Below, piece by piece: positions 24,987-47,504 of a DNA stretch of 64,000 nucleotides (positions are counted from its first letter, which is position 1; the number at the start of each line of letters is the position of its first letter). The DNA lies in UHGV virus genome UHGV-0198106; one strand, written 5' to 3'. Source of the stretch: a virus. The notes under the pieces were generated by a model, which saw nothing but the letters and a program-made list of their open reading frames with translations, was not told the origin of the DNA and did not search any database. The position numbers and the translations under genes were made by a program.

Positions 24987-26831
24987 TCAATGGGTGTGCA
25001 TCCAATTTAATCCAATCTGACAATCAGATGCTAATTCACAGTGCATGTTTAGATATTCTCCTGCTTTTTTAACACAAGTCTCAGCTATCTCTTTCATTTT
25101 ATCAATGTCGTTACGGTTGACAGACCACTGTGCTTCATCATGATAGTCAATCACCTTATTTCCTCTAATACCCTGCTGCTCTACCCATTTATTTGTGAAC
25201 AAAATGGAGTATTTCATGACAATGGCACCTGCACTCTGGAGTAGGGTATTCAGGGCTTTATGCACCATAACCTTACCAGTAGCATCCCGTCTCATGGTCA
25301 ACTTACGACCATCCACACCTTCAAGAGTACCTGTTTCTGCACGAGCTTGTACTCTCTCCAAGACAATTGGGATACAAGGGCATTCTGCTAAGAAACGTTC
25401 TCTGAGAATTTCACCCTCTTGAGCACCTCCTCCAACAATCTCTCCAATCTTAGCTGCGCCTGCCCCATATAGAAATCCATAGATAAAAGTTTTTGCATTA
25501 TCTCTAGTTGGTAGGCCAGCTAGTTTCTGATTGTGGGAATGGATATCACCTGAGAGAAGAACCTCTCGATAAGTATAAGCAGCCTCTAAGCCTTTCTCAG
25601 CCCTAAGATACTTAATTTTATCGTTCTCTGCTTTGGCTTCTTCCATCATGTCAAGGCACTCTTTCACAAGATAGTGCACTAACATACGCAACTCTAACCC
25701 AGAACCATCATACCCTAAGAATACTTCTTTACCAGCGGGTATGTAATATTTGTAAGCACCTACAGGTTTGTCTTTCTTCCCCGGCTTACCTTTCTCGTAA
25801 ATTACGTTAGTACCTTTTCGTATATAACAACCATCAGGAACAACGTTAGTAATAACGAAAGGACGAGAGTGATCACTGTCTGAGTTATAGTCAGACTCAA
25901 ACAAACTGCGACACTCGTGACCAAACAGACCACGGGAGGGAATATTAACCACGATACGATGTTTGAATCGAAAAGTCGGCGTAGCGCAGCTGTTAGCTTC
26001 TGCTGAAAGTTTACCATCTTCGCGTTCCTTTGCTATAAGTCCACTGATAAGACCTAGCCTGTGAGCCGCTACAACGCGTCTCTTAAGCAAACTCCCAACA
26101 CTCCCTAGCTCACCCCCTAGCCCTTCTTCAAGAGTCTCCTCGAGGTTTGTAGGAGCTGTAGGCCACTTGTTTGATGTGGCTAGTGCTTTCTTAATCTCAT
26201 CAAACGTTACAGGATTACGGCGATTCGGGTTTAATCCCAAACCAAATACGTAAGCCTTCATGTAATTCTTAGTCTTAAATCTAAAATGCTTTTCTAAGAA
26301 TTTCTTTATATCAGCGTCAACCATCTCGGCTGTCTGCTTTTGCTTAGCATTGCCTCGCATCCAAGCAGTATACCATGCTTGGTATGTTCCATACTTTCTC
26401 ATATCTTTCTTAATTTCGAAAGTATTCCAAGGCTTTTTAGATACGTTAAACTCTGGAGGAAGAAAGCCCTCATCCATAAGAGCTTCTTTAACTCGTGCAT
26501 CCTTCGATGGGTCAAAGTCTACGTATTCGACACAGGTGAAAGCTCCACCAATGTCCTCCCTCTTCAGCCCAACCCTATCACAATAGGCTTGAGGCCACTT
26601 CTGCAAAGCTCCAGACTTCTTAAACGGCTTCATATAAGTAGAGCCGTCTAATCTCATCTTAGGTAAGAGAGGAATTAGTTCTTTATCAATATTAACAATA
26701 ATCTCTTTAAGGAGGTGAACATACCACCGAGCATTTCTTCGGTTGAAACTCACTCCGTGCTTTGCTTGCTTAGAGATTATATCAGCGACAGTCATCTCTG
26801 TCAAAAATGGAAGAGCGTCCGGGTTGCTCAC
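24987..26831 (-). CDS. DNA polymerase, family A, polymerase domain
   Basis: Motif A DGSGLELR, motif B RDNAKTFIYGFLYG, motif C VIDYHDEAQW; GTG start; no exonuclease motifs in this ORF. Confidence 0.9.
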   Translation of the reverse strand: MSNPDALPFLTEMTVADIISKQAKHGVSFNRRNARWYVHLLKEIIVNIDKELIPLLPKMRLDGSTYMKPFKKSGALQKWPQAYCDRVGLKREDIGGAFTCVEYVDFDPSKDARVKEALMDEGFLPPEFNVSKKPWNTFEIKKDMRKYGTYQAWYTAWMRGNAKQKQTAEMVDADIKKFLEKHFRFKTKNYMKAYVFGLGLNPNRRNPVTFDEIKKALATSNKWPTAPTNLEETLEEGLGGELGSVGSLLKRRVVAAHRLGLISGLIAKEREDGKLSAEANSCATPTFRFKHRIVVNIPSRGLFGHECRSLFESDYNSDSDHSRPFVITNVVPDGCYIRKGTNVIYEKGKPGKKDKPVGAYKYYIPAGKEVFLGYDGSGLELRMLVHYLVKECLDMMEEAKAENDKIKYLRAEKGLEAAYTYREVLLSGDIHSHNQKLAGLPTRDNAKTFIYGFLYGAGAAKIGEIVGGGAQEGEILRERFLAECPCIPIVLERVQARAETGTLEGVDGRKLTMRRDATGKVMVHKALNTLLQSAGAIVMKYSILFTNKWVEQQGIRGNKVIDYHDEAQWSVNRNDIDKMKEIAETCVKKAGEYLNMHCELASDCQIGLNWMHTH

Positions 26832-29647: not shown

Positions 29648-30304
29648 TTAATTCTCCAAAGTTTTCTTCAAAGCTGCCCATGAGACTGGGTAGAGCTTAG
29701 CCATTTCTTCATCTAGAGATTGGGCAAACACTCGAACTTCATACTGAGCATGAGAGGAGAGTCGCTGACGACACAACTCAAACCAGCCATATAAAGAACC
29801 AGTCCACACCCACTCAGTGATCATCCCCTGAGGAAGAACAAATCGGGCTTGCTCTGGTGCAACGAATTCAATCAACTTGTCATATGCTGCTAGAGAAGCT
29901 TCATATGCATCGTTAATCAGCATTAATGCTTCAGCTCGTTCTCCGTTGAGGAGTTGAATCCCTGAACCTGCATGGAGGTCCGAAGGTCTCGCAAAAATCT
30001 CTTTAGGGATGAAGACTTCAACTGCTCCATCTTTATACCGCCGGGACATTTCGTTCCACGAGAATCCAACCTGATGCTTGCCCAACTGTCTCGCAATTGC
30101 GATAGGTGCTTTGCATCGGAAACTGACTTGCGGGTGTCGGAATGGAGTACAGTGTTTTTCCCGTGCAAGGAAGTTGATAAGTTTTGTGTCTCTCTCATTT
30201 AAGTCACCTTCTCGAACAACACCGAAAGATACTCTAGCTGCATTGACTACAGATTTGTCACTTCCCATTGCTTCAATCAGTGTTGCTTGTAGTTGTTCGT
30301 TCAA
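29648..30304 (-). CDS. ThyX-like (flavin-dependent thymidylate synthase family) candidate
   Basis: Weak match to ThyX signature region (FRH...S...SRRY); sits among nucleotide-metabolism genes. Confidence 0.4.
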   Translation of the reverse strand: MNEQLQATLIEAMGSDKSVVNAARVSFGVVREGDLNERDTKLINFLAREKHCTPFRHPQVSFRCKAPIAIARQLGKHQVGFSWNEMSRRYKDGAVEVFIPKEIFARPSDLHAGSGIQLLNGERAEALMLINDAYEASLAAYDKLIEFVAPEQARFVLPQGMITEWVWTGSLYGWFELCRQRLSSHAQYEVRVFAQSLDEEMAKLYPVSWAALKKTLEN

Positions 30305-30743
30305 TTAAAAGTTCCTTTTTTCGATTCATGTAAACTTGATGAGCTTCTTCGGCAGTTCCATACATACCTAGATGTATATCTACTTTATCAATACAAATAA
30401 CAGCCCTATATCTGATAGTGCCTGATCTGTATTTGACAACCTTAACACCTTGAAGCCCTGTTTCCTTGTTTGATACTCTAGCCCCGAACTGGTTGTGGCA
30501 GTTTGTCGAGGTGTCCACCAACCTCAAGTTCTGTATTGAGTTGTTCTTCTTATTTCTATCGATATGGTCTATCTGAGAAGAAGGCCATTCTCCATAGTAA
30601 AAGAACCATGCCACTTTATGAGCTTTGTGTACTTTCCCTTTAAACCGCAGGGTTATGTACTTACTTCGAGTTCCTCCTAATTTCTTACCTTTTCGAAAGA
30701 ACTCTCCAGTTTCAGGGATATACTCTAAATCATCGATTACCAT
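30273..30743 (-). CDS. HNH homing endonuclease (HNH_3 + AP2-like)
   Basis: IDHIDRNKKNNSIQNLRLV HNH motif; overlaps both neighbours, typical of free-standing homing endonuclease insertions. Confidence 0.7.
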   Translation of the reverse strand: MVIDDLEYIPETGEFFRKGKKLGGTRSKYITLRFKGKVHKAHKVAWFFYYGEWPSSQIDHIDRNKKNNSIQNLRLVDTSTNCHNQFGARVSNKETGLQGVKVVKYRSGTIRYRAVICIDKVDIHLGMYGTAEEAHQVYMNRKKELLIERTTTSNTD

Positions 30744-31008
30744 TCAGAGCTGTATCCAAAAATGCTTTCAGGTTTGCTTCAGTCTGCATACCAGAGAGGC
30801 TGTAGTGTGCACCACTGTTACGGTCAGGCACAACGAAAGCAGGGATACTTCGTACACCATACTTAACAGCTTGTTCACGACCATCACCTTCAAGGATGTT
30901 AATCTCTTCCACTTCTACATCAAACTCCTTAACAACCTTCTCAAAGGTAGGAGCCATTGCTTTACATGGAGCACACTGATCACTATAAAACTTAATTACT
31001 TTAGACAT
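30730..31008 (-). CDS. thioredoxin-like protein
   Basis: CxxC redox motif QCAPCK in a 92-aa thioredoxin-fold-sized ORF. Confidence 0.7.
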   Translation of the reverse strand: MSKVIKFYSDQCAPCKAMAPTFEKVVKEFDVEVEEINILEGDGREQAVKYGVRSIPAFVVPDRNSGAHYSLSGMQTEANLKAFLDTALNGNR

Positions 31009-31016
31009 GTAAATCC

Positions 31017-31196
31017 TTATGCAGTCAGGAGGTGAAGCAGGAACGGGATAACAACAGCTACGATAACCATGATGGTTGATGCTGTTTGAATCTCACCTTT
31101 CTTATCAGGAGTTTCTTCAATAAGCTTACCAGAAGCCCAATAAATACCACCACCGATAAAGATAGCCCAAATACCCCATACGATTGCTGATAACAT
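31017..31196 (-). CDS. small two-TM membrane protein (59 aa)
   Basis: Not in track; AAGGATAT upstream of ATG; MLSAIVWGIWAIFIGGGIYWASGKLIEETPDKKGEIQTASTIMVIVAVVIPFLLHLLTA. Confidence 0.4.
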   Translation of the reverse strand: MLSAIVWGIWAIFIGGGIYWASGKLIEETPDKKGEIQTASTIMVIVAVVIPFLLHLLTA

Positions 31197-31256
31197 ATAT
31201 CTATATCCTTATAAATAAGTTCGCCCCACCTCGGGTTAGGAGGCAGGGCTTGAGTT

Positions 31257-31820
31257 TTAGTAAGACACATCACCACTGGAATGGGACATGTTACTCTTGA
31301 CGAAGTAACAATACTTGCCAAGACCTTCATTAATTTCTTGAAGCATACTCTGGTCGACAGGATAGGAGGCTAAATCGCCATCAAACTCATCCATCTTCTC
31401 GATAATACACATCAAGGTCATGCACATATCAGAGAGCATACCGTCCATATCTAGGTCAGCATTACCCTCTGAGAACCAAGCGTGAGAAAGATAATTAGCT
31501 GCTGTAGCATCCACCTTAACACAGTGGTATCGCATACGTTCAGCAATACGATCTCCTACTTGTCGTGCGTAATCTTCCAGCTCATCAAACATACCATGAA
31601 CACCCTGAAATCCTGCACCAGAGACGTTCCAGTGGTAGTTTTTAGCTTTGATATGCAAGAGTTCCATGTTAGCTTGTAAGCAGCTCAGGATGTGTTCTAG
31701 GCTGTTTCCACTAATCATACCCTGCATTGTTTCAAGGCGAGAGATTGAAAGCTCAGACCGGTCTAACACACTATAGCTGTCACGACCAATCTCAGGTAAA
31801 TCAAAGACATTCTTATGCAT
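31257..31820 (-). CDS. Dps-like ferritin-fold protein
   Basis: Dps signature NYHWNVSGAGFQGVHGMFDELED; start placed at ATG 31820 after GGAGAAAA (track ORF begins at 31868). Confidence 0.65.
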   Translation of the reverse strand: MHKNVFDLPEIGRDSYSVLDRSELSISRLETMQGMISGNSLEHILSCLQANMELLHIKAKNYHWNVSGAGFQGVHGMFDELEDYARQVGDRIAERMRYHCVKVDATAANYLSHAWFSEGNADLDMDGMLSDMCMTLMCIIEKMDEFDGDLASYPVDQSMLQEINEGLGKYCYFVKSNMSHSSGDVSY

Positions 31821-32142
31821 TTGGGTTTTCTCCATCAAGTTCAACTGAGTTAGCAACGTTACGTGCAATATTATCCATTACCTGCTGGGTAATTACGATG
31901 CAGTTCTGTGGGTCTACTGACTTAGAACGCCCCATTTCAGGGTCATACACCTTAACTCGCTTAGCAGTTGAACCTGTAACCTGAAGAACCTTCAACAGAT
32001 ATCCCTGATTACCGATAGACCAAGCAACAACATCACGATTCTTGATAAAGCGACCAAGCATATCACGATGATAAAACTGTTGCATCACCTTGGATTTTGT
32101 AATCTCTTCAGTGGGCGGGGCCACTTTACTCAAATCTAACAT
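31813..32142 (-). CDS. hypothetical protein
   Basis: Track ORF, 109 aa; 8-nt overlap with the Dps-like start. Confidence 0.45.
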   Translation of the reverse strand: MLDLSKVAPPTEEITKSKVMQQFYHRDMLGRFIKNRDVVAWSIGNQGYLLKVLQVTGSTAKRVKVYDPEMGRSKSVDPQNCIVITQQVMDNIARNVANSVELDGENPNA

Positions 32143-32214
32143 AACTCTCTCCTGTAAAATACAAATTCTTATTGTACTCTATATACATTTGAGAGTTATC
32201 ATATCTACTACCAA

Positions 32215-32409
32215 TTAGTAGTGCACTTTTCCACTGATATAAACACGACCAGAGGAGTACTCCTTGGCCTTATGAATACTAACGCTCTTAGTTAAGTCCC
32301 CATGGAACATAGACTTTTTAAAATCTCGAGCCTGTTGACGAGTAGGTAATGCGGTCATAGTCATACTTCCTGATGCCCACTTAATCTTTGCTAACCAGAA
32401 TTTTTTCAT
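32215..32409 (-). CDS. hypothetical protein
   Basis: Track ORF, 64 aa. Confidence 0.4.
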   Translation of the reverse strand: MKKFWLAKIKWASGSMTMTALPTRQQARDFKKSMFHGDLTKSVSIHKAKEYSSGRVYISGKVHY

Positions 32410-32451: not shown

Positions 32452-33006
32452 TCATACCATATCAGCATGATTTGTTCCACCAAAAGCTTTTGTTGGCCCT
32501 TGTTGATTATTATAGGAACCTTTCGTTGCGTAGCTATCCTCTTCCGAGGAGGAATGTTTAAAGAACTCCATTTGACCTATACGCATCCCCGGTTTAATTA
32601 GCAAAGAGTGGTGCTGTAGGACATTCTTGAATTCCATAGTTAACTGACTGCCATGCCAACCGCCATCAGCATGACCAGCGTGCATGTGCTCTAAGAAGCA
32701 ACGACCGACAGTAGACCGTAGCATGAAGTCACAGCTAATGTTGTCTGGAAGGTTGAATGTCTCCACTGTATGAGCTAAGAAACACTCACCCGGTTTGATC
32801 ACCAACCCCTCCTCTGGAATCATAACCTCATTGAAGTTAGGGGACTCTTTAGCAGAGATATCAACAACCCCATTAGCTGCACCTTCCATCAGAACGCGAT
32901 CTCCAATACGAACATCAATGCTGGAGGAATTAACAGCTGAGTGTGGTGCATCAATAACACCATCGTCAATTAATTTATGTAACTCTGGGCTTCCTAGTAA
33001 ACTCAT
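32452..33006 (-). CDS. dcd: dCTP deaminase family protein
   Basis: Collinear with the Dcd/dUTPase fold: IDVRIGD, IKPGECFLAHTVETFNLPDN, GWHGSQLTMEFKN, IKPGMRIGQMEF. Confidence 0.85.
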   Translation of the reverse strand: MSLLGSPELHKLIDDGVIDAPHSAVNSSSIDVRIGDRVLMEGAANGVVDISAKESPNFNEVMIPEEGLVIKPGECFLAHTVETFNLPDNISCDFMLRSTVGRCFLEHMHAGHADGGWHGSQLTMEFKNVLQHHSLLIKPGMRIGQMEFFKHSSSEEDSYATKGSYNNQQGPTKAFGGTNHADMV

Positions 33007-34315: not shown

Positions 34316-34873
34316 TTACATTTTCCAATATAATGAAGGTGGGTCGTAAGGGTCAAATCCTGTGAGTTCACACAAGTATTTATAAACCTTAACAGTTAAG
34401 TTAACGTCCTGTTCACAATAAGTAAACATATCCTCAGTGAAAGCATCCCATGCTTCCTCTTGCTCACCGTAATCACCTTTAAGTTCCCCTAAGAACTCAC
34501 CCCATTGCTTCAAGCCATGACCTCTTGGGCCATGTCTAGGGTCGCCTTTCGGATACTCAGGACTGTCACCAATACGGTCAGGTTTAAGATATCGACTAAG
34601 ACATAAAGTGTCGAAGACGTTAAAACGATAGTCGATCAGATTGGGATACATTTTCTTCAGAGCACAAAGGTCGAAGTCAATAATGTTATGACCTAAGATC
34701 ACATCAGCTTCTGTAAGCTTACGAATCCCATCTTCAATTTGGTGAGGCCGATAGCCCCACCTTTCATCAGTTTCAACATCGAAAATATAAATACACCACA
34801 CTTTGGTTATATCATCGTATAGTGCATTACTCTCGATATCGAATGCAAACACTTTCTTCTTTTTCTTTACCAC
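34316..34873 (-). CDS. 3'-5' proofreading exonuclease (DEDDy), separate gene
   Basis: Exo I FAFDIES, Exo [11 protein letters not shown], Exo III YCEQD; GTG start. Confidence 0.8.
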
Positions 34874-37516: not shown

Positions 37517-37742
37517 ACTCTACTTCTATATCATAGTCAATATAGGGTAGAAGCTCTAGGAGCTCAGGCGGGAAATCATCTTGAGTGATACGGTCAGTTC
37601 TTGTATTATAGGCTACATCACCTCCCTCAGAGATGGCCCAATCTCCATTCTCTATCTGGGGGATTGTGGAGAAGTTATAAAAAACAATATCAGTATCCTC
37701 ATCATAGAATGCGGATACACATTTTATCTTTTCGAACTCCAT
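37509..37742 (-). CDS. hypothetical protein
   Basis: Track ORF, 77 aa, acidic. Confidence 0.4.
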   Translation of the reverse strand: MEFEKIKCVSAFYDEDTDIVFYNFSTIPQIENGDWAISEGGDVAYNTRTDRITQDDFPPELLELLPYIDYDIEVEYD

Positions 37743-37743
37743 A

Positions 37744-38163
37744 TTAACCCTCGTTTTTTAGATACTCTGACCAGTCTCCTGACTCAACCAGAACATCTTG
37801 TTCTTCGTCGATATGATAAATCCAAGCGATAACAGTTTCACCTGAGTCCATCTTAACAGCAATCTGGGTACGCTGATAGAAGCTATCTTCAGGGCTATGT
37901 TTGTTGTAGCCTTCCAGACGGTCATATGGACCTTCCAGACCTGCTTTGTCAGTAGCAAACACTTCTACACGAACAGGCTTATTGTTATTGCTGTGTGCGA
38001 GAGAGATGCTCGGGAAGTAGGAACCACCGTAACGGAACAGATCGAAGTTATCTTCAGTCCAACCTTCACCAATAGATTTAGCACCAGCTCGGTCATTAAT
38101 TAAATAGTTAGCTTGACCGCTTCTCAAACTTCCATAAGTTGCTACGTAAATTACTTCTGACAT
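37744..38163 (-). CDS. gamma-glutamyl cyclotransferase-like (AIG2/GGCT fold) protein
   Basis: N-terminal YVATYGSLRSG (YGxL) typical of AIG2/GGCT-like proteins; 139 aa. Confidence 0.5.
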   Translation of the reverse strand: MSEVIYVATYGSLRSGQANYLINDRAGAKSIGEGWTEDNFDLFRYGGSYFPSISLAHSNNNKPVRVEVFATDKAGLEGPYDRLEGYNKHSPEDSFYQRTQIAVKMDSGETVIAWIYHIDEEQDVLVESGDWSEYLKNEG

Positions 38164-38232
38164 TATCTATACCTTTGTTGGTTTGTTTAGTTTATCCGAA
38201 CTAGCCCCCTCTTTCGAAGAGGCTAAAGCAGA

Positions 38233-38418
38233 TTACTCTGTAATAAAGATTTTGATTACACCACAGATTGCTGCACTCTCAAACATTGCAACAGCTTCAC
38301 TTCCCTGAAAGAAGGTCACTTTGCCATCAGAGAAGTTAAACATATCAGCATCTAGGTCCATAGCTCGCATTTCACCAGCGGCATTGGTATCTTTAAACAG
38401 AACTTTATACTTATTCAC
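38233..38418 (-). CDS. hypothetical protein
   Basis: Track ORF, 61 aa; 4-nt overlap with upstream gene. Confidence 0.35.
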   Translation of the reverse strand: MNKYKVLFKDTNAAGEMRAMDLDADMFNFSDGKVTFFQGSEAVAMFESAAICGVIKIFITE

Positions 38419-38663
38419 AGATAGGTCACTCCTTTGTCTTGTTGTGCTTCAGCGATGATACGTTCTACACATTCCATAGAATACTTATCACCACGTTTCA
38501 GGAAAGTTACAATTGCAGAGAATTGATTACCAATCATTCGCTGATTAGTAATACCCCATTCCTCACACAACTTACGCAACTCTTTACGAGAGCCTACAAT
38601 CAGAGGCTCTTTTTGTTCCATCATTCCATTTTGTACTAGATCTTCCAATGAAAACATATCCAT
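38415..38663 (-). CDS. hypothetical protein
   Basis: Track ORF, 82 aa. Confidence 0.4.
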   Translation of the reverse strand: MDMFSLEDLVQNGMMEQKEPLIVGSRKELRKLCEEWGITNQRMIGNQFSAIVTFLKRGDKYSMECVERIIAEAQQDKGVTYL

Positions 38664-38669
38664 ATATCC

Positions 38670-39866
38670 TTAGTAGTTTACAACAGTGCCATCATTCAGG
38701 GTAAGGCTATTAATCTGCAACACACGACCAAGCTGACGATCACTAATTGGTGCGTTCCAACCAGAGCGGTAGAAGTTACGACCGCAGAAGAAAACAATTA
38801 CATTACTTGCTACAGTTGAGCCGTTTTCAGGATGCTTGATGTTCGCGATATAATAACCACGACGCAGGGTACGACGGGTGATTGGGTTGATCTCTAACCC
38901 TTGTTCTTCCACTTGCATTGTTTCAGGAACAGGTTCAGATGACTCTTCAGCAACTGGCTCAGCTGTCAATGCAAAGTTCTCATCATCCGCTGAGTCAGCA
39001 AACTCAACTTCCGACTCTTCAACAGGCAGTTCGTAAGCAACGCGGTAGTCAGGCTCAACACCAGAGAAGCTCTTAACAAACTCAACAATGTTGTGAGTGT
39101 AAGTTTCCAGAGTTGTACCAGTCAGACCCGGAGCAGTGTTTACTTCCAGAACCCAAGCGTTAGAGCCTTTACTAATCAGGTCAACAGCGCCGAAGTTTAA
39201 ACCCAGAGCAGACACAGCTTTGTGGGCTTGAATCAGAACTTGATCAGGAGGAGCTTCAGTGAAAGAGTTAGAGTAAACCCAGCCAGTGTGATGGTTGCGA
39301 ATATTTTCACGATAGCTTTCCAGTTCACGATATCCATTACGACGAATCTTCTTCTGAACGTAAGTGATAACACCTTCGAACACATGAACACGCCATTCAC
39401 GACGCGGACCTTGAATACCTTTCGTATACAGAGGAGCACTTGCAGTACCTTCTCCCGGAAGACGTACGGTGATGCCTTCACCAGAATGTCCAGTTAAGGT
39501 TGCACGCTCATAAACGATTTCGTTTTGGTTCCAGCTCTGAGCTACTTCACGATCAACGGTATATTCAACAGTCTTAACTCCAGCCAACCGTAATGCGTTA
39601 AATGCTGCAACTTTATTAGCTGCTCGGTTCAGGGCTTCAACAGGGTTCAGTACGGTTGCACCACCAAAGAAAGAAGCATCATAACGACGGTTGCCATAGT
39701 TTACAACAATATCACCGGCTCGAGAACGATAACGAGAGTTTTCTGATACCAGAGACATTACGTTAGCATTCAGTCGAAGTTCCTGAATCTTAGCATTAAT
39801 AGCAGAAGTAAGTTCACGAACTGAATCAGAAGGGCCATAAGGGAGAACACGGATACGAGTAGTCAT
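38670..39866 (-). CDS. ATP-grasp family ligase
   Basis: ATP-grasp C-terminal motif GAVDLISKGSNAWVLEVNTAPGL; acidic linker plus extra C-terminal domain. Confidence 0.75.
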   Translation of the reverse strand: MTTRIRVLPYGPSDSVRELTSAINAKIQELRLNANVMSLVSENSRYRSRAGDIVVNYGNRRYDASFFGGATVLNPVEALNRAANKVAAFNALRLAGVKTVEYTVDREVAQSWNQNEIVYERATLTGHSGEGITVRLPGEGTASAPLYTKGIQGPRREWRVHVFEGVITYVQKKIRRNGYRELESYRENIRNHHTGWVYSNSFTEAPPDQVLIQAHKAVSALGLNFGAVDLISKGSNAWVLEVNTAPGLTGTTLETYTHNIVEFVKSFSGVEPDYRVAYELPVEESEVEFADSADDENFALTAEPVAEESSEPVPETMQVEEQGLEINPITRRTLRRGYYIANIKHPENGSTVASNVIVFFCGRNFYRSGWNAPISDRQLGRVLQINSLTLNDGTVVNY

Positions 39867-39868
39867 TG

Positions 39869-40093
39869 TTAGATACCTTTAAGTTTAAGAATTTCGTTAC
39901 GAGTTTTTTGAATCTGAGCTTCAATTTCGAAGTAGTCATTGAACGCATCGTTCTCTACTTCATCGGATGGTGCATCAATCAGACCGAAAGCGAACGGATA
40001 CAGCTTTCGCTGCTCCGTTACTAATTCGATATGAACTCCTATGTAATACTGTAGGAGAGTAATCTTCGGTTTCTTAGGAACCAGATTTGACAT
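39869..40093 (-). CDS. hypothetical protein
   Basis: Track ORF, 74 aa. Confidence 0.35.
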   Translation of the reverse strand: MSNLVPKKPKITLLQYYIGVHIELVTEQRKLYPFAFGLIDAPSDEVENDAFNDYFEIEAQIQKTRNEILKLKGI

Positions 40094-40307
40094 GAGGTTC
40101 TACCTTAATGCCTTTGATTTTTACATAATCAGCAAGTACGTTATTGATCACCGTTGGGAACGGAACCTCAACCTGTGTCTCAAGTACTTGACCAATACCA
40201 GCTTGCATCCACTTCTGGATTGCACGAAGGTTGTCACATCCTGTGCTCGTCATCGGGATACGTCGAGTAGTTACAACATTATCCAACATCATCTTACGAA
40301 TTTCCAT
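40074..40307 (-). CDS. hypothetical protein
   Basis: Track ORF, 77 aa; overlaps neighbour. Confidence 0.35.
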   Translation of the reverse strand: MEIRKMMLDNVVTTRRIPMTSTGCDNLRAIQKWMQAGIGQVLETQVEVPFPTVINNVLADYVKIKGIKVEPHVKSGS

Positions 40308-40312
40308 CTGAT

Positions 40313-42343
40313 TTAACCTCTATTCAATGAACATTTAGGAGAATTACAATAAACTTGATTCATAGAACCAAGCGTACAACTTTCAGCATCGCGCCACGGA
40401 ATCTGCTTAAAACACTCTGAGCAGTATCCGAGGGTTGACCACATGGCTTTGGTGAAGTCAGTGCTTCGATTTCCGTCGAAGCTGACAACAGTTTTGCGGA
40501 GAGCTGTTCGTGATTCAGGAAACACACCTGCTTTCTCAGCAGGTTCCTCCTTTTTTGGCTTAGTCGAGATTGCAAAAATACTGTTGCCACGTTTCTCAAC
40601 ATAAGCATCAACAACATCTTCCAGAGTGATACCTGTTTGTTTCGCTGAGGAGGGTAATACGGTCATACGACCAATCATTTCCTCAGTTACACGTACAGCA
40701 ATTTCAGGACGACGGGTGTTTGTTGTATCTGTTGCTTTAATCCAGACATAACCATCTTTGATCGTAGCATTAGACACTTTCTTCTTTACTTCTACAGCAC
40801 AGTCTTTACAGATATCTTCACCACGGAGGCGGCTAAGTTCTTCATCGAACTCATTCTCTGTTTTAACCTCACCACAGATTTCACAAACACCGATAGGAGT
40901 CTCCTCCTCTTCTTCCTCTTTAGGTTTAGTCAACCTTTCCAGACACTCGGGATGCCAGTAGCACTGATATGCGAAGACTGCTTTAGGTGCATCCTTCCAA
41001 TCAATGTGCTTGTCACAACCACCACAATCACCATGAGAGTGTGCTTCCCAGAATTTACGAGTGATAGTAACGCCATTCTTGTTGACGAAACTATCATTCA
41101 TGTCAAAAGGGATATCATCATCGAAGTCAGCAGTAGTTGACTCAGGCTCCTTTTTCTCCAGAGATGGGTCAACAAAACGACCTGCTGTGATTACTAAACG
41201 AACCATAGCATCGACTTCGGAGATGCAGGATACTGTCCCACGGTAAACAATTTTAGGGTCTTTCAGGGCATCCTGATAAGCCTTAATGTCTACGTTATGA
41301 ACATCACCTTCAATGTACTCTTGAGATTTCTCATCGTAGATATAACCAATCATCTTACCACGAGAAGGAACAGCACCAGCAGTTGCATAGGGAACAAATT
41401 CATGTGGTGTGATTTCCACAGTCATGTCGCGGCGAATATCAATGTTTCGATCGCTTGCGATTTTGTTTTGACTTACCACTGCGTTTCTTCGACGAACGTC
41501 TGCCGCTGTCACTCCCGGCTTCGTGTCGTAAGGATTGCTTGTACTGCTTTTTGAGGAGCTTTGATAATTGCTTTGGCTGTAGTTGTTCGAGTAGTAACTG
41601 GCCCAACGATTGACTACCGTAAAAACCGGAAGCTCATGGGCGACCTCTTCAACCAGAGTCATGCTGTTGTTTGACATATCAAAGATATATTCTGTACCAA
41701 CTTTACATTCAAAGTGCTCATCAATTCGGTTTTTGTGAGACTTAGAACGCTTCAGAATCCACATCAGCATATCTTCTTCAGAAGCACCAAACCAATCTCT
41801 ATTACAACGTGCGAGATGGAAAGGACGCTCTTCGTTACGAATAATATGAAGACGGTTATCAGAAGCATCATGCCAGATTAAGGTGAAAGCACCATCCAGC
41901 TTTTGAATAGTCTCTGCTGCACCAATAGTGTTAATAGAGTAGCAGATGTTCTCACTGTCTACCTCGAAGTTTTTACTGTCAGGTAACAGATCTTGGTCCA
42001 TCAAGGTTCCGTTATGAACCAGAGTGATGTTACCGTGTTGGAAAGGATGGGCGTTCTTGGCGTTAACTGCACCTTTCGTTGCATGACGACTGTGACCAAC
42101 AATCCATGAAGGTGCTACAGTATAAGATGTTTCACCAGTGGTGTGCTTCTTATACTCATCTTGTAGGATGAATGCGAAAGAGGGAAGAGCTTCCTTATAA
42201 GTGAAGACTTCCTTAGTACTTTTACGCTGACCAAAGATACCAGAGGAATGTTGTCCTCGGAATACCCCAGCATAAAAGAGTTGGTTGAATACGTCTAAAT
42301 CGGTGCTTGACAGATTACCGCCAGCTAATACGATGCCGCAAAT
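40313..42343 (-). CDS. class-II (Ntn) glutamine amidotransferase domain protein with Cys-rich C-terminal region
   Basis: GATase motifs CGIVLAGG, GHSRHATKG, NAHPF, HNGTL are encoded upstream of the first ATG/TTG (track start 42004); frame is open to a TAG at 42347-42349; only start placing Cys at position 2 is ATT 42341-42343, 8 nt after AGGTGGA. Confidence 0.6.
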   Translation of the reverse strand: MCGIVLAGGNLSSTDLDVFNQLFYAGVFRGQHSSGIFGQRKSTKEVFTYKEALPSFAFILQDEYKKHTTGETSYTVAPSWIVGHSRHATKGAVNAKNAHPFQHGNITLVHNGTLMDQDLLPDSKNFEVDSENICYSINTIGAAETIQKLDGAFTLIWHDASDNRLHIIRNEERPFHLARCNRDWFGASEEDMLMWILKRSKSHKNRIDEHFECKVGTEYIFDMSNNSMTLVEEVAHELPVFTVVNRWASYYSNNYSQSNYQSSSKSSTSNPYDTKPGVTAADVRRRNAVVSQNKIASDRNIDIRRDMTVEITPHEFVPYATAGAVPSRGKMIGYIYDEKSQEYIEGDVHNVDIKAYQDALKDPKIVYRGTVSCISEVDAMVRLVITAGRFVDPSLEKKEPESTTADFDDDIPFDMNDSFVNKNGVTITRKFWEAHSHGDCGGCDKHIDWKDAPKAVFAYQCYWHPECLERLTKPKEEEEEETPIGVCEICGEVKTENEFDEELSRLRGEDICKDCAVEVKKKVSNATIKDGYVWIKATDTTNTRRPEIAVRVTEEMIGRMTVLPSSAKQTGITLEDVVDAYVEKRGNSIFAISTKPKKEEPAEKAGVFPESRTALRKTVVSFDGNRSTDFTKAMWSTLGYCSECFKQIPWRDAESCTLGSMNQVYCNSPKCSLNRG

Positions 42344-42422
42344 TTTCTAATCCACCTGAAGGGTAAACCCTTTCATCTAATTAACCTTTAAATTGTGCCC
42401 CTTTATCAGAGGCACCCATTGA

Positions 42423-43526
42423 TTACAGCGCTTGCTCTAACTGATACTCCAGATGATCTGGAATGTACCCTGTGATATTATTATCAATATGGCCTGACTC
42501 ACGAAGTAAGTCAAAGATCTCACGGATACATTGCTCTGGTGCAGATCGTACAGTAGATAGATCTGTTGTATTAAGCATGACCAAAATCTCTTGGTACAAG
42601 TTGTTAGCATTCCCTCGGACATATCCAAGGTATCCATAGAAGTCTGAGATAAGACGTAAGTCAACAAGAACTTCTCCACTTGGGTTGGTTCGACGTAAAC
42701 GAATACGACCAGACTGCTCTACTTCATGAGAACGGCAGTACAAAACATCACGGGCCATACAATACCCTGAATGCAAATCCAATTCATCCAGACTGTAATC
42801 TAGTGGAAGATAAGGAAGCATTGGGGCAAATCGTACAGTATTTAAATGCTCGATAAACTGATCATTGCTCATCTCTGCGTTATCTAAAGCCAGCTTCTTC
42901 AACATTAAGAAGCGGTTAACCAGATTGAGAAGTTGACCACGTTTCCACTTAGGCTCACTGATACGGAACTCGATCGAACCATATTGGGCAAGTGGCAGAA
43001 GGTTCAGAGATGTATATTTATCCCATGAACGAACCAGACGGTTGAAGAACTCTTCATCGTCGTAGTTAAATGCGTCAGAGGCATTCATTACCTGTGCTTG
43101 TACCACTGCGAAAGCAGGGCAGAAGTTGCTACGGTAACGATGGTAGCCTGAACACTTGAACAACATCTTTTCATAGAAGGTCCAAGCTAGAATGGTCTTC
43201 TTGAGGATATTACTATCAGCATCCCTCATATCCATATGAACGTGAGTAGAGCAACGCCAAGTCCCCTCGGCGTGCGATTCAGCTACTGCTTCACTCAGGT
43301 TGTTGATAGCGTCTAACAACTCCTGTCCGTTGTAAGGTCGTGAACATACCATTTCACAACCGTTACGCAGGGAACCATCCTCTGTGCAATCCCACATATC
43401 TGCTTCGATATGTTCAGAACCTTCGAGTTCAAGTTCAATACCGACACCGCACTGAAGTGCAATTGAACTATGCGCCTCAGTTAAACGACCTTCTCGATAT
43501 CCAAAAGTTTGCGCTACAGTTGTCAT
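42423..43526 (-). CDS. glutamine-synthetase-fold carboxylate-amine ligase-like protein (amidoligase candidate)
   Basis: N-terminal GVGIELELEG resembling the G-I-E-x-E motif of GCS2/YbdK-type ligases. Confidence 0.45.
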   Translation of the reverse strand: MTTVAQTFGYREGRLTEAHSSIALQCGVGIELELEGSEHIEADMWDCTEDGSLRNGCEMVCSRPYNGQELLDAINNLSEAVAESHAEGTWRCSTHVHMDMRDADSNILKKTILAWTFYEKMLFKCSGYHRYRSNFCPAFAVVQAQVMNASDAFNYDDEEFFNRLVRSWDKYTSLNLLPLAQYGSIEFRISEPKWKRGQLLNLVNRFLMLKKLALDNAEMSNDQFIEHLNTVRFAPMLPYLPLDYSLDELDLHSGYCMARDVLYCRSHEVEQSGRIRLRRTNPSGEVLVDLRLISDFYGYLGYVRGNANNLYQEILVMLNTTDLSTVRSAPEQCIREIFDLLRESGHIDNNITGYIPDHLEYQLEQAL

Positions 43527-44140
43527 AACGAATCCACCAACGTAATATTATAATTGCTAAGGTTTTCAGAGATGTGATGAAAATGTTCCAGAAGTCGCAT
43601 CGGTTGCTGACCGTAAGAGTCACGAGGTGCTTCCAGATCTACCTGACCTACCCGTGCACCTTTATAATGCACTTTACCATCTGTAGGGTTGATGTAAATG
43701 TAACGAGTAACCAATCCATCAAATTCAGGATTGAATAGACTGTAAACCATTTCCCCAGAGATAGAACGACCAACCCCCGGAGCATTTCGAATCTTGTTAC
43801 CCACCAAACCCTTCGCTCTCTGACGAACAGGGTTGATATGAGTCCAGCTTACAGTGTTACCATTATGGAACAGATAGCCAACATCAGGTGATTCAAGAAT
43901 CAAGGTTGGGTCAAACACTGGAATATTCATCGTAGTGTTTCGGAGAATCCCGTTCTCATTCTTGTACCATTGCTCTACAACAAAGTACAGAGCTTGTTCT
44001 GCTTCATGTGAGAAGTCGTCGCTGCGGAAGTTACCTCTCTGCTCAACACCAATCACAAAACAGGGAAGGTTGATGTTGCCTGCTCGTTTAGCAATCCATG
44101 TGCCACTATAGTAATGAGAAAAATCAGCTACTAAGCTCAC
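43523..44140 (-). CDS. hypothetical protein (amidoligase-operon member)
   Basis: Track ORF, 205 aa; 4-nt overlap with upstream gene. Confidence 0.45.
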   Translation of the reverse strand: MSLVADFSHYYSGTWIAKRAGNINLPCFVIGVEQRGNFRSDDFSHEAEQALYFVVEQWYKNENGILRNTTMNIPVFDPTLILESPDVGYLFHNGNTVSWTHINPVRQRAKGLVGNKIRNAPGVGRSISGEMVYSLFNPEFDGLVTRYIYINPTDGKVHYKGARVGQVDLEAPRDSYGQQPMRLLEHFHHISENLSNYNITLVDSL

Positions 44141-44149
44141 GATAACCTC

Positions 44150-44956
44150 TTATGCTACCTGAAGGAGTTTGATCTGCTGGTCCGCTTCTTTAACGTTATT
44201 ACCGTTAATAATTTCGTGAAGCTTCTCAATCGGAAGACGAGAGTGCAATGCCATCAGAGTGGACATATCACACTGCTGAACAACCTTGTCAACCTGATCG
44301 TAAACAAACTTACGATTTTCACGATCGTTAATCCAGAAGTTGGACAGTGAACGGTATTCAATACCGTAGTCCTTATAACGGATTGCAGATGCTTTGCCAT
44401 AAAGTTCTTTACGGCGAGTATCTTTATCCATGATAACTGCTGGGAGTGATAGGAAGTAGTCACACAGCACACCCAGCATCATCTGAGTTTGCAGAGTGAT
44501 ATCCAAAGAACCAACTACGCCAAGATGTACGTGACCACCGGCAGTACGAAGCCCCTTGTTCTGAGAAGTCGGGGATGGATTCTTCTGACCAGTGAAAGCG
44601 TTGAAATCAGGAGTACATCCGAAGATGAACGCTGATTCATTGAAAGTCTTCATCTCCTCTTCAGTGAAGATGTGAGAGCTAACACCCGGAGCTGTTTCCA
44701 TGTCCAGTTTGTTCAGGACTCTATTGGTGAGATCAATACCACGTTGCATGTTATCATTAAACGCTTCAAAACCGCTCTGTGGGTCAATATCAAACTCAGC
44801 CAATACGTTGTCCTCTTGAAGACGAACATCCTTAGCCAGAGCGATCTTATCGTCCTTAGAGCAGCCTAGAAGACCGGCTACAGAGGTGATGATTCCGTTG
44901 CTAGTACGAACGAAGAGCTCAGGGTCGCTGCCTATTAAGAATTTGCGCTTAGTCAT
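44150..44956 (-). CDS. second GS-fold amidoligase-like candidate
   Basis: N-terminal FLIGSDPELFV resembling the G-x-[DE]-x-E-[LF]-F motif of GS-fold ligases; weak. Confidence 0.35.
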   Translation of the reverse strand: MTKRKFLIGSDPELFVRTSNGIITSVAGLLGCSKDDKIALAKDVRLQEDNVLAEFDIDPQSGFEAFNDNMQRGIDLTNRVLNKLDMETAPGVSSHIFTEEEMKTFNESAFIFGCTPDFNAFTGQKNPSPTSQNKGLRTAGGHVHLGVVGSLDITLQTQMMLGVLCDYFLSLPAVIMDKDTRRKELYGKASAIRYKDYGIEYRSLSNFWINDRENRKFVYDQVDKVVQQCDMSTLMALHSRLPIEKLHEIINGNNVKEADQQIKLLQVA

Positions 44957-45920
44957 TGTAATACTCCACTAGTTCAGAAAAGAGAGATGAGATTGTGTTA
45001 CCAACTTCTTCAGTCGTAAGGCCAGAAGTTGGACCAGTACGCTGAATCAATCGGGCTGTAAAGTTTTGTACTGTAATGTTTTCCAACTTATTGTCTATTG
45101 TTTCACGTTTGTGACCATGACAGCTGGACCAGAGTCTTAACCACTCTGACATTGTTTCATACTCGTCCGGGTCTTGATCTTTAGCACGAGCAAATCTTCG
45201 TAAGGCATCTTGGTTATGGTTGCGAACATAACCGTCCTTGTTGTCACCAACACCGAAGGGGTTTTGAACCCACACTTGTTTCGTGTATTCATCAGAGTCT
45301 ACAACCAAAGGAAGGAATGCTGCTGCTGACATATTGTTGTTAATAACAATGGATGTGTTCTCTCCACTCCCATTGGAGGTTCCTCGTTGAGACCATCCAC
45401 CGAAGAAGTCTCGACCTAACCCAGCTAACACTAGAGCAATTCCGATGCGTTTACGCTTCAGCCACTCTTCCCTGTCTTCAATTCCTTCTGATAGGAAATC
45501 CATTCCACGATACTGCCCTTCCAGAATACTACGGAAGAGCATAAGTCCTGTGAAGATTTGATCTGCTGGATGCTCACGGAGGTTGACAGCAACACTATTC
45601 GCTGAAGTGATCGTAAATACATCACGATAGCAAGACATAGAGTTCATAATGTCTGCTGTTTCAACCAAGTTCTTTTCAATGTCAGATGCAGCGAGACCAT
45701 GAAAAGAGTGAGTCCAGTAATTCAACATCTCCAATTGCAAGTTGATATCACGGTTGAAGCGTTTATGAATCCCTTCTTCCATTACAGAGTCGCCATTAAT
45801 GTCATTTATGACTTGGCCTTGCATGTAGTTGTGAATACCGAAGCACCCACGACCTAAGAACTTCTGTTCCCCTAAATCTTGTTGAAGATTCAGAGGTACG
45901 ATCGTTGTGGAGATTGACAT
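44949..45920 (-). CDS. hypothetical protein (amidoligase-operon member)
   Basis: Track ORF, 323 aa; overlaps downstream gene by 8 nt. Confidence 0.45.
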   Translation of the reverse strand: MSISTTIVPLNLQQDLGEQKFLGRGCFGIHNYMQGQVINDINGDSVMEEGIHKRFNRDINLQLEMLNYWTHSFHGLAASDIEKNLVETADIMNSMSCYRDVFTITSANSVAVNLREHPADQIFTGLMLFRSILEGQYRGMDFLSEGIEDREEWLKRKRIGIALVLAGLGRDFFGGWSQRGTSNGSGENTSIVINNNMSAAAFLPLVVDSDEYTKQVWVQNPFGVGDNKDGYVRNHNQDALRRFARAKDQDPDEYETMSEWLRLWSSCHGHKRETIDNKLENITVQNFTARLIQRTGPTSGLTTEEVGNTISSLFSELVEYYND

Positions 45921-45930
45921 AACTAACCTT

Positions 45931-47130
45931 TTATTTTCCTAAAAATAATCCGCTCATAATACCATCCCATTCAGAGGATGGAACCACTGAATACTCCGAA
46001 CTTTGGTCCAGAGTTCCACTACTAAATCGCTGAATAATGTTATAGATGTTGAACATATCCTTAGTCTCGATACGATTACCGTAGAGTAATTTGTCAGCTG
46101 TTCTTTCACCTTTAGATACCCGACGAACAAAGTTAACCAGAAGGTTGTCACATTCAAGTGTTTCTGATCCACTCTTTACTAAATCGGGGTGCATCACCGG
46201 CAAGAACATTGAGTTATTAACTCGTAAATCTGATGTTTCGTTATTTTCATAACTAATCCATTTAAAATCTTCATCACGGAAGTGACCACAACCATGATTG
46301 TACGACTGCTGACGCCAAGGCACTTTAAATGCTTCAGTATACTTATCAGCCATACCAACTGTAAACAGTGATGCTGGGAAGATACAAGCATCCCAATCAT
46401 TACCAACCAGAGTTGTTTTTGTTTCTCCTAAGAGGTTAGTGTAAGTGCTAACCATTCGTGAGTAAACATAGGCCTGAAGGATTGTCCAGCCTTCAACCAA
46501 CCATTTATGAAGGAAGGTTTCAACCTGACTCTCTTCATCTTCACAATAGAAGGTTCGGTCTAACATCAAATAGAACAGACAACGGTCAGCATGGACATTC
46601 TCAGTTGCTACACCCATAAAACCTTTTTCGTGCCAGCGTAAACAGGAGGGACGGTCTTTGTCCACAAATGCTTCCATAGCTTCCAGTACAGCACGAGGTG
46701 TGGTTTGATACTCAGGGTTTTTGTCATTCCAACGTTCAATGTTATTTTTAAGCTCACCTTCCTGATCAATATTACCCCAACCCAACCCTTTGGTTACAGG
46801 CTTTTTGTCACGATAACTCAGAAAACCTAACATATCTAAGTGGGTTCCAGAGTTCCAGATATGTTTAATATCGCACATATCCATCTCGTCACTTAACAGG
46901 CAGTCTTGCCCATCTGCACTACGAATATTAGATGCTTCGCTCCAAACCTTAACGTGCATATTCCACCCACGAGTTGCCTCATAGGTGTTAGGTTCAAAAT
47001 ATTCATCGTATTTGCCATCATCACCTTCATCAGCACCACCGTTATAGTTGCGGAGCTGAAGGAATCCATAGCAAGGAGGATAAACCGTTAAAACATTACC
47101 TTCAGTATCTTCTAATGTTACTGGAAACAT
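45931..47130 (-). CDS. hypothetical protein (amidoligase-operon member)
   Basis: Track ORF, 399 aa; Cys/His/Trp-rich. Confidence 0.45.
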   Translation of the reverse strand: MFPVTLEDTEGNVLTVYPPCYGFLQLRNYNGGADEGDDGKYDEYFEPNTYEATRGWNMHVKVWSEASNIRSADGQDCLLSDEMDMCDIKHIWNSGTHLDMLGFLSYRDKKPVTKGLGWGNIDQEGELKNNIERWNDKNPEYQTTPRAVLEAMEAFVDKDRPSCLRWHEKGFMGVATENVHADRCLFYLMLDRTFYCEDEESQVETFLHKWLVEGWTILQAYVYSRMVSTYTNLLGETKTTLVGNDWDACIFPASLFTVGMADKYTEAFKVPWRQQSYNHGCGHFRDEDFKWISYENNETSDLRVNNSMFLPVMHPDLVKSGSETLECDNLLVNFVRRVSKGERTADKLLYGNRIETKDMFNIYNIIQRFSSGTLDQSSEYSVVPSSEWDGIMSGLFLGK

Positions 47131-47141
47131 TGTACCAACCT

Positions 47142-47504
47142 CTATTGGTTTTTAATCAACTCAATTGACTTACGGATATAAAGAATATCTCGGAAGTTTC
47201 TGTAGTTGTTCATAAATTGGTGCTTCTGAAACTCAGCTTCAAGCAGAGCTTCTTTAGCACTTTCGTAGTTCTGGCGGGCAAGATGTACAACCCGCTCTGG
47301 TAACGTGTTTGCGCGACGTATAACATACTTGTGAGCTTTCATATTACTTTGCTCACGAGCAATCTTACTTTTCGCTACCGTAATACCATTTGCAATCCAA
47401 GCAAGCTCTTGCTCAAGTTCTTCGTTGGACATACCACCGAGGTTTGATGCAACCTTGTTCAGAGTTTCAATATTAACGTTGCCCTTAATGGGACGTGTAT
47501 TCAT
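47142..47504 (-). CDS. hypothetical protein
   Basis: Track ORF, 120 aa, helical. Confidence 0.45.
   Translation of the reverse strand: MNTRPIKGNVNIETLNKVASNLGGMSNEELEQELAWIANGITVAKSKIAREQSNMKAHKYVIRRANTLPERVVHLARQNYESAKEALLEAEFQKHQFMNNYRNFRDILYIRKSIELIKNQ

Follow-up and report, generated by a model that had tools for sequence, protein, structure and literature searches.

What a Dps-family mini-ferritin and a thioredoxin, encoded within about 250 nt of each other, do for a strictly lytic coliphage is the question raised by positions 30730 to 31820 of UHGV virus genome UHGV-0198106, of which a stretch of 64,000 nucleotides (hereafter the window) was analysed. The original prediction described here, in what it took to be a replication block, a CxxC thioredoxin-fold open reading frame (ORF) and an ORF with a Dps signature, separated by a small ORF with two transmembrane (TM) segments, and it proposed protection of replicating phage DNA from oxidative damage, or iron and redox management during infection. 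The layout was borne out in each respect: all three ORFs lie on the minus strand at just the positions stated, 248 nt separate the thioredoxin start from the Dps stop, the intervening ORF encodes 59 aa with two hydrophobic segments, and the neighbours include ThyX, dCTP deaminase, a polymerase exonuclease subunit and a primase/helicase. As to function, iron and redox management during infection is the most reasonable reading for Dps, and we favour, with moderate confidence, an arrangement in which a soluble Dps sink for iron and peroxide is made in the middle phase of infection and thioredoxin has a separate function on the DNA polymerase.

Nucleotide similarity identifies the window as a phiEco32-like Kuravirus (Gordonclarkvirinae; podophages with prolate 'C3' heads). 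Over a 3.5-kb region around the locus, identity is about 96% with Escherichia phage ES17 and 94% with SU10, and 99 phage records match this region by DNA similarity, all of them Escherichia or Shigella phages or unnamed phage isolates. Every gene in this part of the window is carried on the minus strand. The thioredoxin, two-TM and Dps ORFs are homologues of phiEco32 genes 65, 66 and 67, and the window's thioredoxin and Dps are orthologous to gp65 and gp67 of phiEco32 and SU10 at 96-98% protein identity, within the same gene order of ThyX, thioredoxin, TM ORF, Dps and gp68. The window differs from these two phages, and resembles ES17, in having an HNH gene between ThyX and thioredoxin; otherwise nothing substantial sets them apart.

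The Dps gene lies at 31257-31820 and encodes 187 aa when read from the ATG at 31820, the start annotated in related phages; the reading frame extends upstream to a TTG at 31868. The protein contains the signature HWNVSGAGFQGVHGMFDE and matches Pfam Ferritin (PF00210) with 31.1 bits against a cut-off of 24.5, the aligned part being residues 55-109 only, and phrog_3636 with an E value of 3.7e-55. Nearly all of its 60 matches to PDB sequences at E <= 1 are Dps proteins, the best being M. smegmatis Dps2 (E 2.2e-9, residues 51-176). A family profile derived from 14 phage homologues and run against 1.84 billion representative proteins found 3415 at E <= 1e-3, just seven of them at E <= 1e-30, after which E values fall off to about 1e-19; given this gap, the phage proteins constitute a distinct, divergent clade within the Dps family. 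The score against NCBIfam NF006975 (equivalog PRK09448, the E. coli-type DNA-condensing Dps) is 34.6 bits, below the cut-off of 114. An AlphaFold (AF2) monomer model (predicted local distance difference test, pLDDT, 80; predicted TM-score, pTM, 0.72) places helix A at residues 41-65, B at 71-98, a short BC helix at 107-112, C at 125-150 and D at 154-176, which fits the mini-ferritin topology of a four-helix bundle with a short BC helix and without the fifth E helix of 24-mer ferritins. In a Foldseek search of the PDB with this model, the top 50 matches were all Dps or Dps-like, with target-normalised TM-scores mostly between 0.72 and 0.92 and root-mean-square deviations (rmsd) of 1.1-2.5 A among the better ones; B. 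anthracis Dlp-2 superposes at 1.1 A, and TM-scores of 0.89-0.92 are reached by S. aureus Dps, B. brevis Dps and Dlp-1. The hidden Markov model (HMM), PDB, profile and fold evidence together rule out a chance motif match as the explanation of the Dps call, and from sequence and predicted structure the ORF is a genuine but divergent phage Dps-family mini-ferritin.

The catalytic residues point the same way. The alignment of 14 phage Dps sequences shows no variation at H63, W64, H75, D79, D90 and E94, which align with H51, W52, H63, D67, D78 and E82 of E. coli Dps (sequence taken from the MG1655 genome); the position of D79 is the sole ferroxidase position that varies across the wider family, being Asp or Glu. 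The phage protein is thus predicted to carry the full set of ferroxidase ligands together with the adjacent Trp, which by homology would be arranged between subunits. Counterparts of the ferroxidase residues and of W52, and the fold itself (6gcm, 6b0d), are what it shares with E. coli Dps, to which it is only 19% identical. E. coli Dps condenses DNA through the tail lysines Lys5, Lys8 and Lys10, a tail that the phage protein lacks. The phage Dps has an isoelectric point (pI) of 4.72 and a net charge of -15 per subunit, its N-terminal 40 residues include one Lys and carry a net charge of -2, and its C-terminus is without a basic tail; every clade member examined is acidic. Because the protein is so acidic and has neither a Lys-rich nor a basic tail, the E. 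coli-type Lys-tail mode of DNA binding is absent, and direct binding and protection of DNA by Dps, as originally suggested, is not upheld.

In these respects the phage protein resembles a reference set of tail-less bacterial Dps proteins (B. anthracis Dlp-1 and Dlp-2, B. subtilis MrgA, and those of L. innocua and S. aureus) together with M. smegmatis Dps2, with which it shares a four-helix bundle with BC helix (rmsd 1.1-2.5 A over about 140 residues), the ferroxidase ligands, the Trp, acidity and the lack of a Lys-rich tail. It differs from them in sequence (20-27% identity, the phage proteins forming a separate clade), in possessing several Cys residues and in a 40-residue N-terminal extension with a motif of its own. 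This extension, residues 1-40, is clade-specific and holds a conserved S-x-x-R-L-(E/D)-x-M motif in which R28 is invariant; a helix is predicted there at low confidence in the AF2 model, and the motif is not shared by the shorter Dps of phage Privateer. Cysteines number five in the phage Dps and range from 0 to 10 among clade members. A redox-regulated Cys pair was considered and rejected, as none of the cysteines is kept throughout the clade, one member of which has none at all. The ratio of nonsynonymous to synonymous substitution rates (dN/dS) of the Dps gene is 0.05-0.07, and about 0.05 against Kuravirus relatives at 81% protein identity, which indicates very strong purifying selection. 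A strictly lytic coliphage group retains, under such selection, an intact gene for a predicted iron-oxidising nanocage.

The gene to study alongside Dps is not the thioredoxin but the one directly upstream, which encodes a 109-aa protein of phrog_10984 (31813-32142; homologue of phiEco32 gp68). There is an 8-nt overlap between its stop and the Dps ATG (ATGCATAA), with GGAG upstream, and the two genes are predicted to be translationally coupled. Synteny was compared across related loci from viral contigs and phage records, the ORFs of which were searched with the window proteins. A phrog_10984 homologue directly precedes Dps in Kuravirus, in the Privateer-like loci L010, L011 and L026, in the metagenomic locus L012 and in Aeromonas phage LAh_6 (L024); these homologues score profile E values of 1e-38 to 1e-57, and their overlap with Dps is usually 1-8 nt. 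In the Salmonella 7-11-like loci L008 and L009 the homologue lies about 1 kb upstream of Dps with ThyX between them. Thioredoxin is usually near Dps, though not always: there is no thioredoxin match near Dps in L012 and none annotated near Dps in LAh_6. The regular neighbour of Dps in most prolate-podophage lineages examined is, on homology, phrog_10984 rather than thioredoxin, and the partnership of thioredoxin and Dps implied by the original prediction gives way to this coupled neighbour on one side and, for thioredoxin, to the polymerase as a more specific candidate partner on the other. Among the loci examined, the phrog_10984 partner was not seen outside prolate podophages; an unrelated Dps copy in Streptomyces phage Gilson has ribonucleotide reductase (RNR) and ThyX genes nearby and no phrog_10984.

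The phrog_10984 protein is mildly basic (pI 8.8) and conserved (dN/dS 0.05-0.08), and the coupling of the genes suggests that it is a likely physical partner of Dps. It has no Pfam match even at E <= 10 and no NCBIfam relative, and a search of 5.8 billion proteins with its profile returned 111 relatives, none informatively named, the long contigs among them being phage-sized. An AlphaFold model from a shallow alignment (pLDDT 67) places a small barrel of five strands between two helices; Foldseek matches it to generic Tudor, PWWP, SH3 and KOW barrels, weakly and without significance (best E 5e-3). Two other leads were discarded: a match to a beta-propeller protease in a PDB profile search (best E 0.1) is not credible, and a precomputed PF23835 tag on a few phrog_10984 relatives was not reproduced. 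On the other side of Dps, directly downstream, the non-Kuravirus prolate podophages carry a stand-alone ATP-cone protein (about 90-100 aa; Pfam E 2e-20; L026:4398-4694 and L024:4429-4701, with homologues in L008-L012). In LAh_6 the anaerobic ribonucleotide reductase NrdD and its activase NrdG lie beside the phrog_10984-Dps pair, and NrdD, NrdG and the ATP-cone protein flank Dps in both LAh_6 and Privateer. The Privateer ATP-cone gene is misannotated as 'ribonucleotide reductase'.

Signals for transcription enclose the same two genes. The 72-nt intergenic spacer in front of phrog_10984 contains the element AAATGTATA (32182-32190, minus strand), some 40 nt before the ATG; it is one mismatch from tAATGTAtA, the promoter consensus of the phiEco32 sigma factor gp36, and does not vary among six Kuravirus sequences. 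Experiments have located a gp36-dependent promoter upstream of phiEco32 gene 68, which is the phrog_10984 gene, and the gene 68 cluster was counted, like the polymerase and nucleotide enzymes, among the middle genes (PMC8948821). At the other end, a G+C-rich hairpin of ten pairs (31223-31249, minus strand) begins 8 nt past the Dps stop and is followed by a U-rich stretch; its minimum free energy is -21.6 kcal/mol (z-score -3.6). Among Kuravirus species the stem is conserved and the loop varies, and one C-to-T change retains a G-U pair. The hairpin could act as an attenuating terminator where Dps gives way to the genes that follow it, or as a stem that stabilises the RNA there. Between 29500 and 33200 no sigma-70-like promoter was matched, against 8.4 +/- 3.2 expected from shuffles, which suggests that sigma-70 sites are avoided within the middle-gene block and fits transcription by read-through or from the phage sigma factor. 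The promoter element and hairpin, as predicted, bracket phrog_10984 and Dps as a two-gene unit, and together with the absence of sigma-70-like sites they make this unit look like the opening part of a middle transcription unit, and perhaps its most strongly expressed one. In bacteria Dps is under OxyR, sigma-S or PerR stress control; the phage gene differs in standing behind a phage sigma-factor promoter in the lytic cycle and in being accompanied by phrog_10984.

The thioredoxin (30730-31008, minus strand; 92 aa; phiEco32 gp65 homologue) matches Pfam Thioredoxin (PF00085) with an E value of 2.2e-13 and 50.5 bits against a cut-off of 23.5, and 143 thioredoxin or protein disulfide isomerase sequences in the PDB at E <= 1e-3. 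Its active site is C12-A-P-C15 and its cis-Pro loop I55-P56; the C-x-P-C and the loop Pro are invariant across Kuravirus, distant relatives and E. coli TrxA, while a Gln occupies the place of the Trp in canonical WCGPC. The alignment begins at about TrxA residue 23, so the first 20 or so residues (beta1-alpha1) are missing, and scores fall below the TrxA and TrxC equivalog cut-offs (49.1 against 96.8 bits for TIGR01068, 37.6 against 138 for PRK09381). It is, to judge from these residues, a redox-competent minimal thioredoxin. The ES17 annotation contains no RNR, peroxiredoxin, Msr or other obvious thioredoxin client.

A candidate client is the DNA polymerase (24987-26831, minus strand). Its best PDB match is T7 gp5 (E 1.6e-37; family A, T7-like), and a three-way alignment with Klenow and T7 gp5 shows that it starts where the polymerase domain starts and is without an exonuclease domain; the exonuclease subunit is encoded by a separate gene (34316-34873). 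Its thumb carries an insertion of about 45 aa (residues 59-103; 26523-26657), aligned with the place that the 76-aa thioredoxin-binding domain occupies in T7 and where Klenow has few residues, and residues 72-145 show a local, weak similarity to T7 293-373 (E 7e-5, 28% identity). This insertion is a candidate docking site for the phage thioredoxin. As processivity factor of the polymerase, thioredoxin has already been proposed for phage Privateer (PMC7881722). Compared with T7 gp5 and E. coli thioredoxin, the candidate Kuravirus pair has in common a T7-like polymerase, an insertion aligned with the matching thumb site and an intact active-site surface on the thioredoxin; it differs in that the phage itself encodes the thioredoxin, which is truncated at its N-terminus, in the length of the insertion (about 45 rather than 76 aa) and in having the exonuclease as a separate subunit.

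The 59-aa ORF between thioredoxin and Dps (31017-31196, minus strand; phiEco32 gp66 homologue, phrog_9296) has its hydrophobic segments at about residues 1-20 and 38-59. Among the loci compared it is Kuravirus-specific, being absent from L008-L012, and it evolves fast, with a dN/dS of about 0.5 and 49-53% identity where the flanking genes have 77-93%; in some Kuravirus species, represented by L005-L007, there are two tandem paralogues (about 6590-7005). It is probably not a functional part of either neighbour. In Kuravirus it occupies the position held by the ATP-cone gene downstream of Dps in non-Kuravirus relatives.

How widely phages carry such a gene was assessed by tblastn of Dps against phage records, of which 168 of 50,697 match (0.33%). 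Sorted by the first word of the organism name, most of these fall under Escherichia (93), Streptomyces (31), Aeromonas (11), Proteus (8), Salmonella (7), Cronobacter (6) and Shigella (3). Near-full-length matches number 99, which equals the number of Kuravirus-like records by DNA similarity, so that Dps, rare in phages overall, appears to be a core gene of the Kuravirus lineage. The earlier statement that Dps is uncommon in phages accordingly stands for phages at large and fails for this group, in which the gene is core and has been annotated in phiEco32 and SU10. Elsewhere, Dps genes of Lactobacillus plantarum myophages (PMC6669764) and of the gut 'Gratiaviridae' and other Bacteroides phages (PMC8008677) have been proposed, without experiments, to protect against oxidative stress; a 2021 gut-phage survey left the Kuravirus Dps genes uncounted (PMC8008677). 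Those proteins resemble the Kuravirus Dps in being phage-encoded near replication genes and proposed to limit iron and peroxide damage, and Dps folds of Lactobacillus phages LP65 and Semele are among the viral structure matches; they differ in belonging to other lineages with Gram-positive or anaerobic hosts and in having 16-22% identity.

Both genes were already known, having been annotated in phiEco32 since 2008 and reported as conserved and detected as proteins in 2014. The original phiEco32 record lists phi32_64 as ThyX, phi32_65 as 'thiol-disulfide isomerase and thioredoxin', phi32_66 as hypothetical, phi32_67 as 'DNA-binding protein, member of the Dps family' and phi32_68 as conserved hypothetical. 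In the SU10 study, CDS65 (thioredoxin), CDS67 (DPS domain) and CDS68 were present in all five C3 phages then sequenced, and all three products were detected by mass spectrometry, Dps with six peptides and 35.8% coverage of the protein in the lysate (PMC4281155). The SU10 sample was precipitated with polyethylene glycol (PEG) only and also held polymerase, PhoH and sigma factor (PMC4281155); being merely PEG-precipitated, it shows expression of Dps and not residence in the virion. A cryo-electron microscopy (cryo-EM) study of SU10 lists the ejection proteins gp20-24 and neither Dps nor thioredoxin, only major gel bands having been analysed, and the Kuravirus taxonomy paper mentions neither protein. 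A literature match pairing 'Dps' with 'prohead protease' was set aside, as the 'DPs' there are decoration proteins. To this extent the finding changes little and restates the published annotation of phiEco32-like phages; the new points are modest, namely the acidic, tail-less character of Dps, its pairing with an uncharacterised SH3-like gene behind a phage-sigma element, and the thumb insertion of the polymerase.

Names are a separate matter. In many Kuravirus GenBank and RefSeq records Dps is labelled 'integrase' (e.g. ES17 PQC45_gp065, IME267, EK5 and IMEP8), and a few call it 'ferric iron binding protein' or 'putative DPS protein'. An acidic protein without a basic tail and with low equivalog scores does not support the labels 'DNA-binding protein' and 'integrase', which look like name transfers or errors; 'Dps-family ferroxidase' would be the defensible name. 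The 'integrase' label matters for genome safety screening, since Kuraviruses such as ES17 are in therapeutic use and, though strictly lytic, could be wrongly flagged as temperate.

In the reading that we favour, Dps would be made as a middle gene, during DNA replication, as the second cistron after phrog_10984. By analogy with all characterised Dps proteins it would form a 12-subunit cage that oxidises Fe(II), preferentially with H2O2, and stores Fe(III) inside, so that both Fenton reagents would be removed. Its strong acidity and lack of a basic tail make a soluble iron and peroxide sink, rather than a DNA coat, the likeliest role of Dps acting alone; the phrog_10984 protein could be its adaptor or tether. 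The benefit would lie in keeping free iron and peroxide low while the genome is replicated and oxygen-reactive or iron-dependent nucleotide enzymes are at work, the sheltered enzymes being flavin-dependent ThyX and, in related phages, ribonucleotide reductase components. Host transcription would be shut off by the phage, and the host would therefore be unable to induce its own Dps. Thioredoxin, for its part, most likely serves the polymerase as a processivity factor, bound at the thumb insertion, and may alternatively or additionally reduce host ribonucleotide reductase; its role would be separate from that of Dps, and the pair probably do not work together.

Several points weigh against this picture. 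The host has its own Dps and thioredoxin, which makes it hard to see why the phage would need copies; homology is the ground for predicting dodecamer assembly, ferroxidase activity and iron loading alike, and the literature searched contains no biochemical or genetic study of any phage Dps. The protein falls far below the NCBIfam Dps equivalog cut-offs and is separated by a large score gap from bacterial Dps, so that a diverged function is possible. On the thioredoxin side, the polymerase insertion has only about 60% of the length of the T7 thioredoxin-binding domain and its similarity is weak. The whole module has a conserved gene order, which weakens any functional argument from adjacency. 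Finally, a Dps-family protein was found in CsCl-purified Privateer virions, in which ten predicted virion proteins were confirmed (PMC7881722), and this would not be predicted of a purely cytoplasmic detoxifier.

Three other explanations would bring Dps to DNA or to the particle. That Dps coats or compacts DNA, whether replicating or that of the host, in the manner of E. coli Dps and perhaps with the phrog_10984 protein as tether, is unlikely. The family name and the annotations say so, the gene lies within the replication module, a basic ORF (pI 10.3) stands just upstream at 32215-32409, and the phrog_10984 protein, besides its pI, has the Tudor, PWWP and KOW fold matches, many of which barrels bind nucleic acids; those matches, however, are not significant and come from a low-confidence model, while the charge of Dps, its single N-terminal Lys, the missing basic tail and the acidity of the whole clade all argue the other way, as does the fact that the tail-less Dps proteins of Listeria innocua and Bacillus anthracis bind no DNA. 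Doubtful as well is a phage-specific two-component device spread across prolate-headed podophages, in which the SH3-like partner brings Dps to phage DNA or to the particle; recruitment of this kind would explain Dps in the CsCl-purified virions, and, if true, would make the protein a virus-adapted mini-ferritin guarding the viral genome in the cell or virion and not a borrowed host stress gene. Less probable still is a virion-associated or capsid-internal Dps that protects packaged DNA or acts in the next host. Its presence among only about ten phage proteins in purified Privateer virions (PMC7881722), its core status in every prolate (C3) podophage lineage sampled, the absence of the Kuravirus-type N-terminal motif from other Dps proteins, and the Dps-fold domains in larger 'prohead protease'-labelled proteins of uncultured phages in the BFVD viral structure library can be cited in favour. 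Yet the gene belongs to the middle (replication) class and not the late one, the SU10 detection came from a lysate that also held replication and transcription proteins, and the SU10 cryo-EM study is without Dps, though it analysed major gel bands only. A cage of about 9 nm would be too big to leave through the portal, and a dense, iron-loaded cage could co-band in CsCl; nor is the N-terminal motif present in Privateer Dps, no shared targeting motif having been found. The multidomain relatives do not help: P0096 (777 aa) has two tandem Dps domains and an unknown tail, and P0126 joins Dps to a C-terminal DUF6321, a tail found also on a helicase, and has relatives adjoining PhoH and not head modules. 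With P0126 showing no link to the head module, capsid targeting of Dps through head-protein fusions is left unsupported by either protein. A further relative, P0033, is a Dps with a poly-acidic tail.

Two further explanations tie Dps more closely to thioredoxin. In one, Dps would be mainly an iron store and donor that, with thioredoxin, sustains iron- and thiol-dependent dNTP synthesis after host shut-off, the clients being host class I ribonucleotide reductase or, in relatives, phage NrdD/NrdG. Dps does lie amid the dNTP-synthesis genes for dCTP deaminase, ThyX and thioredoxin, directly beside NrdG, NrdD and the stand-alone ATP-cone protein in LAh_6 and Privateer, and near RNR and ThyX in Gilson, and Kuravirus, having no annotated RNR, must use the host enzyme. 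The idea is nonetheless improbable, for no iron-release partner (reductase or ferredoxin) was identified, Dps is generally seen as protective and not as an iron donor, the adjacency may reflect conserved module order alone, and the polymerase is the better-supported partner of thioredoxin. The other explanation, in which thioredoxin and Dps form one redox module, for example with thioredoxin reducing Dps cysteines to gate iron uptake or release, is very improbable. Here less than 250 nt part the two genes, in Privateer-like phages they form a contiguous run with phrog_10984, Dps is unusually rich in Cys, and gp65, gp67 and gp68 were detected together in the SU10 lysate; against this, the cysteines are not conserved across the clade, L012 and LAh_6 have Dps without a thioredoxin recognised nearby, and in Kuravirus both the hairpin and a fast-evolving ORF lie between the genes.

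The remaining features of the locus flank these genes, all on the minus strand. ThyX, a flavin-dependent thymidylate synthase, lies at 29648-30304 and dCTP deaminase at 32452-33006. The HNH homing endonuclease gene between ThyX and thioredoxin (30273-30743; Pfam HNH_3 E 1.6e-13; phrog_99) shares 32 nt with the ThyX ORF and 14 nt with the 3' end of the thioredoxin gene. Its occurrence in ES17 but not in SU10 or phiEco32 suggests a mobile insertion; a second HNH gene in ES17 adjoins dCTP deaminase. The basic ORF just upstream of the promoter element (32215-32409; 64 aa; phrog_4939) has a net charge of +10, and weak paralogues of it occur nearby in related phages. Further upstream, at about 37700-47500, homology to ES17 gp077-gp088 identifies genes with the ES17 annotations gamma-glutamyl cyclotransferase, aminotransferase and COOH-NH2 ligase. 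Early gene products of SU10 include an ATP-grasp enzyme and a glutamine amidotransferase (PMC4281155), and the cluster in the window looks like a peptide- or metabolite-modification module.

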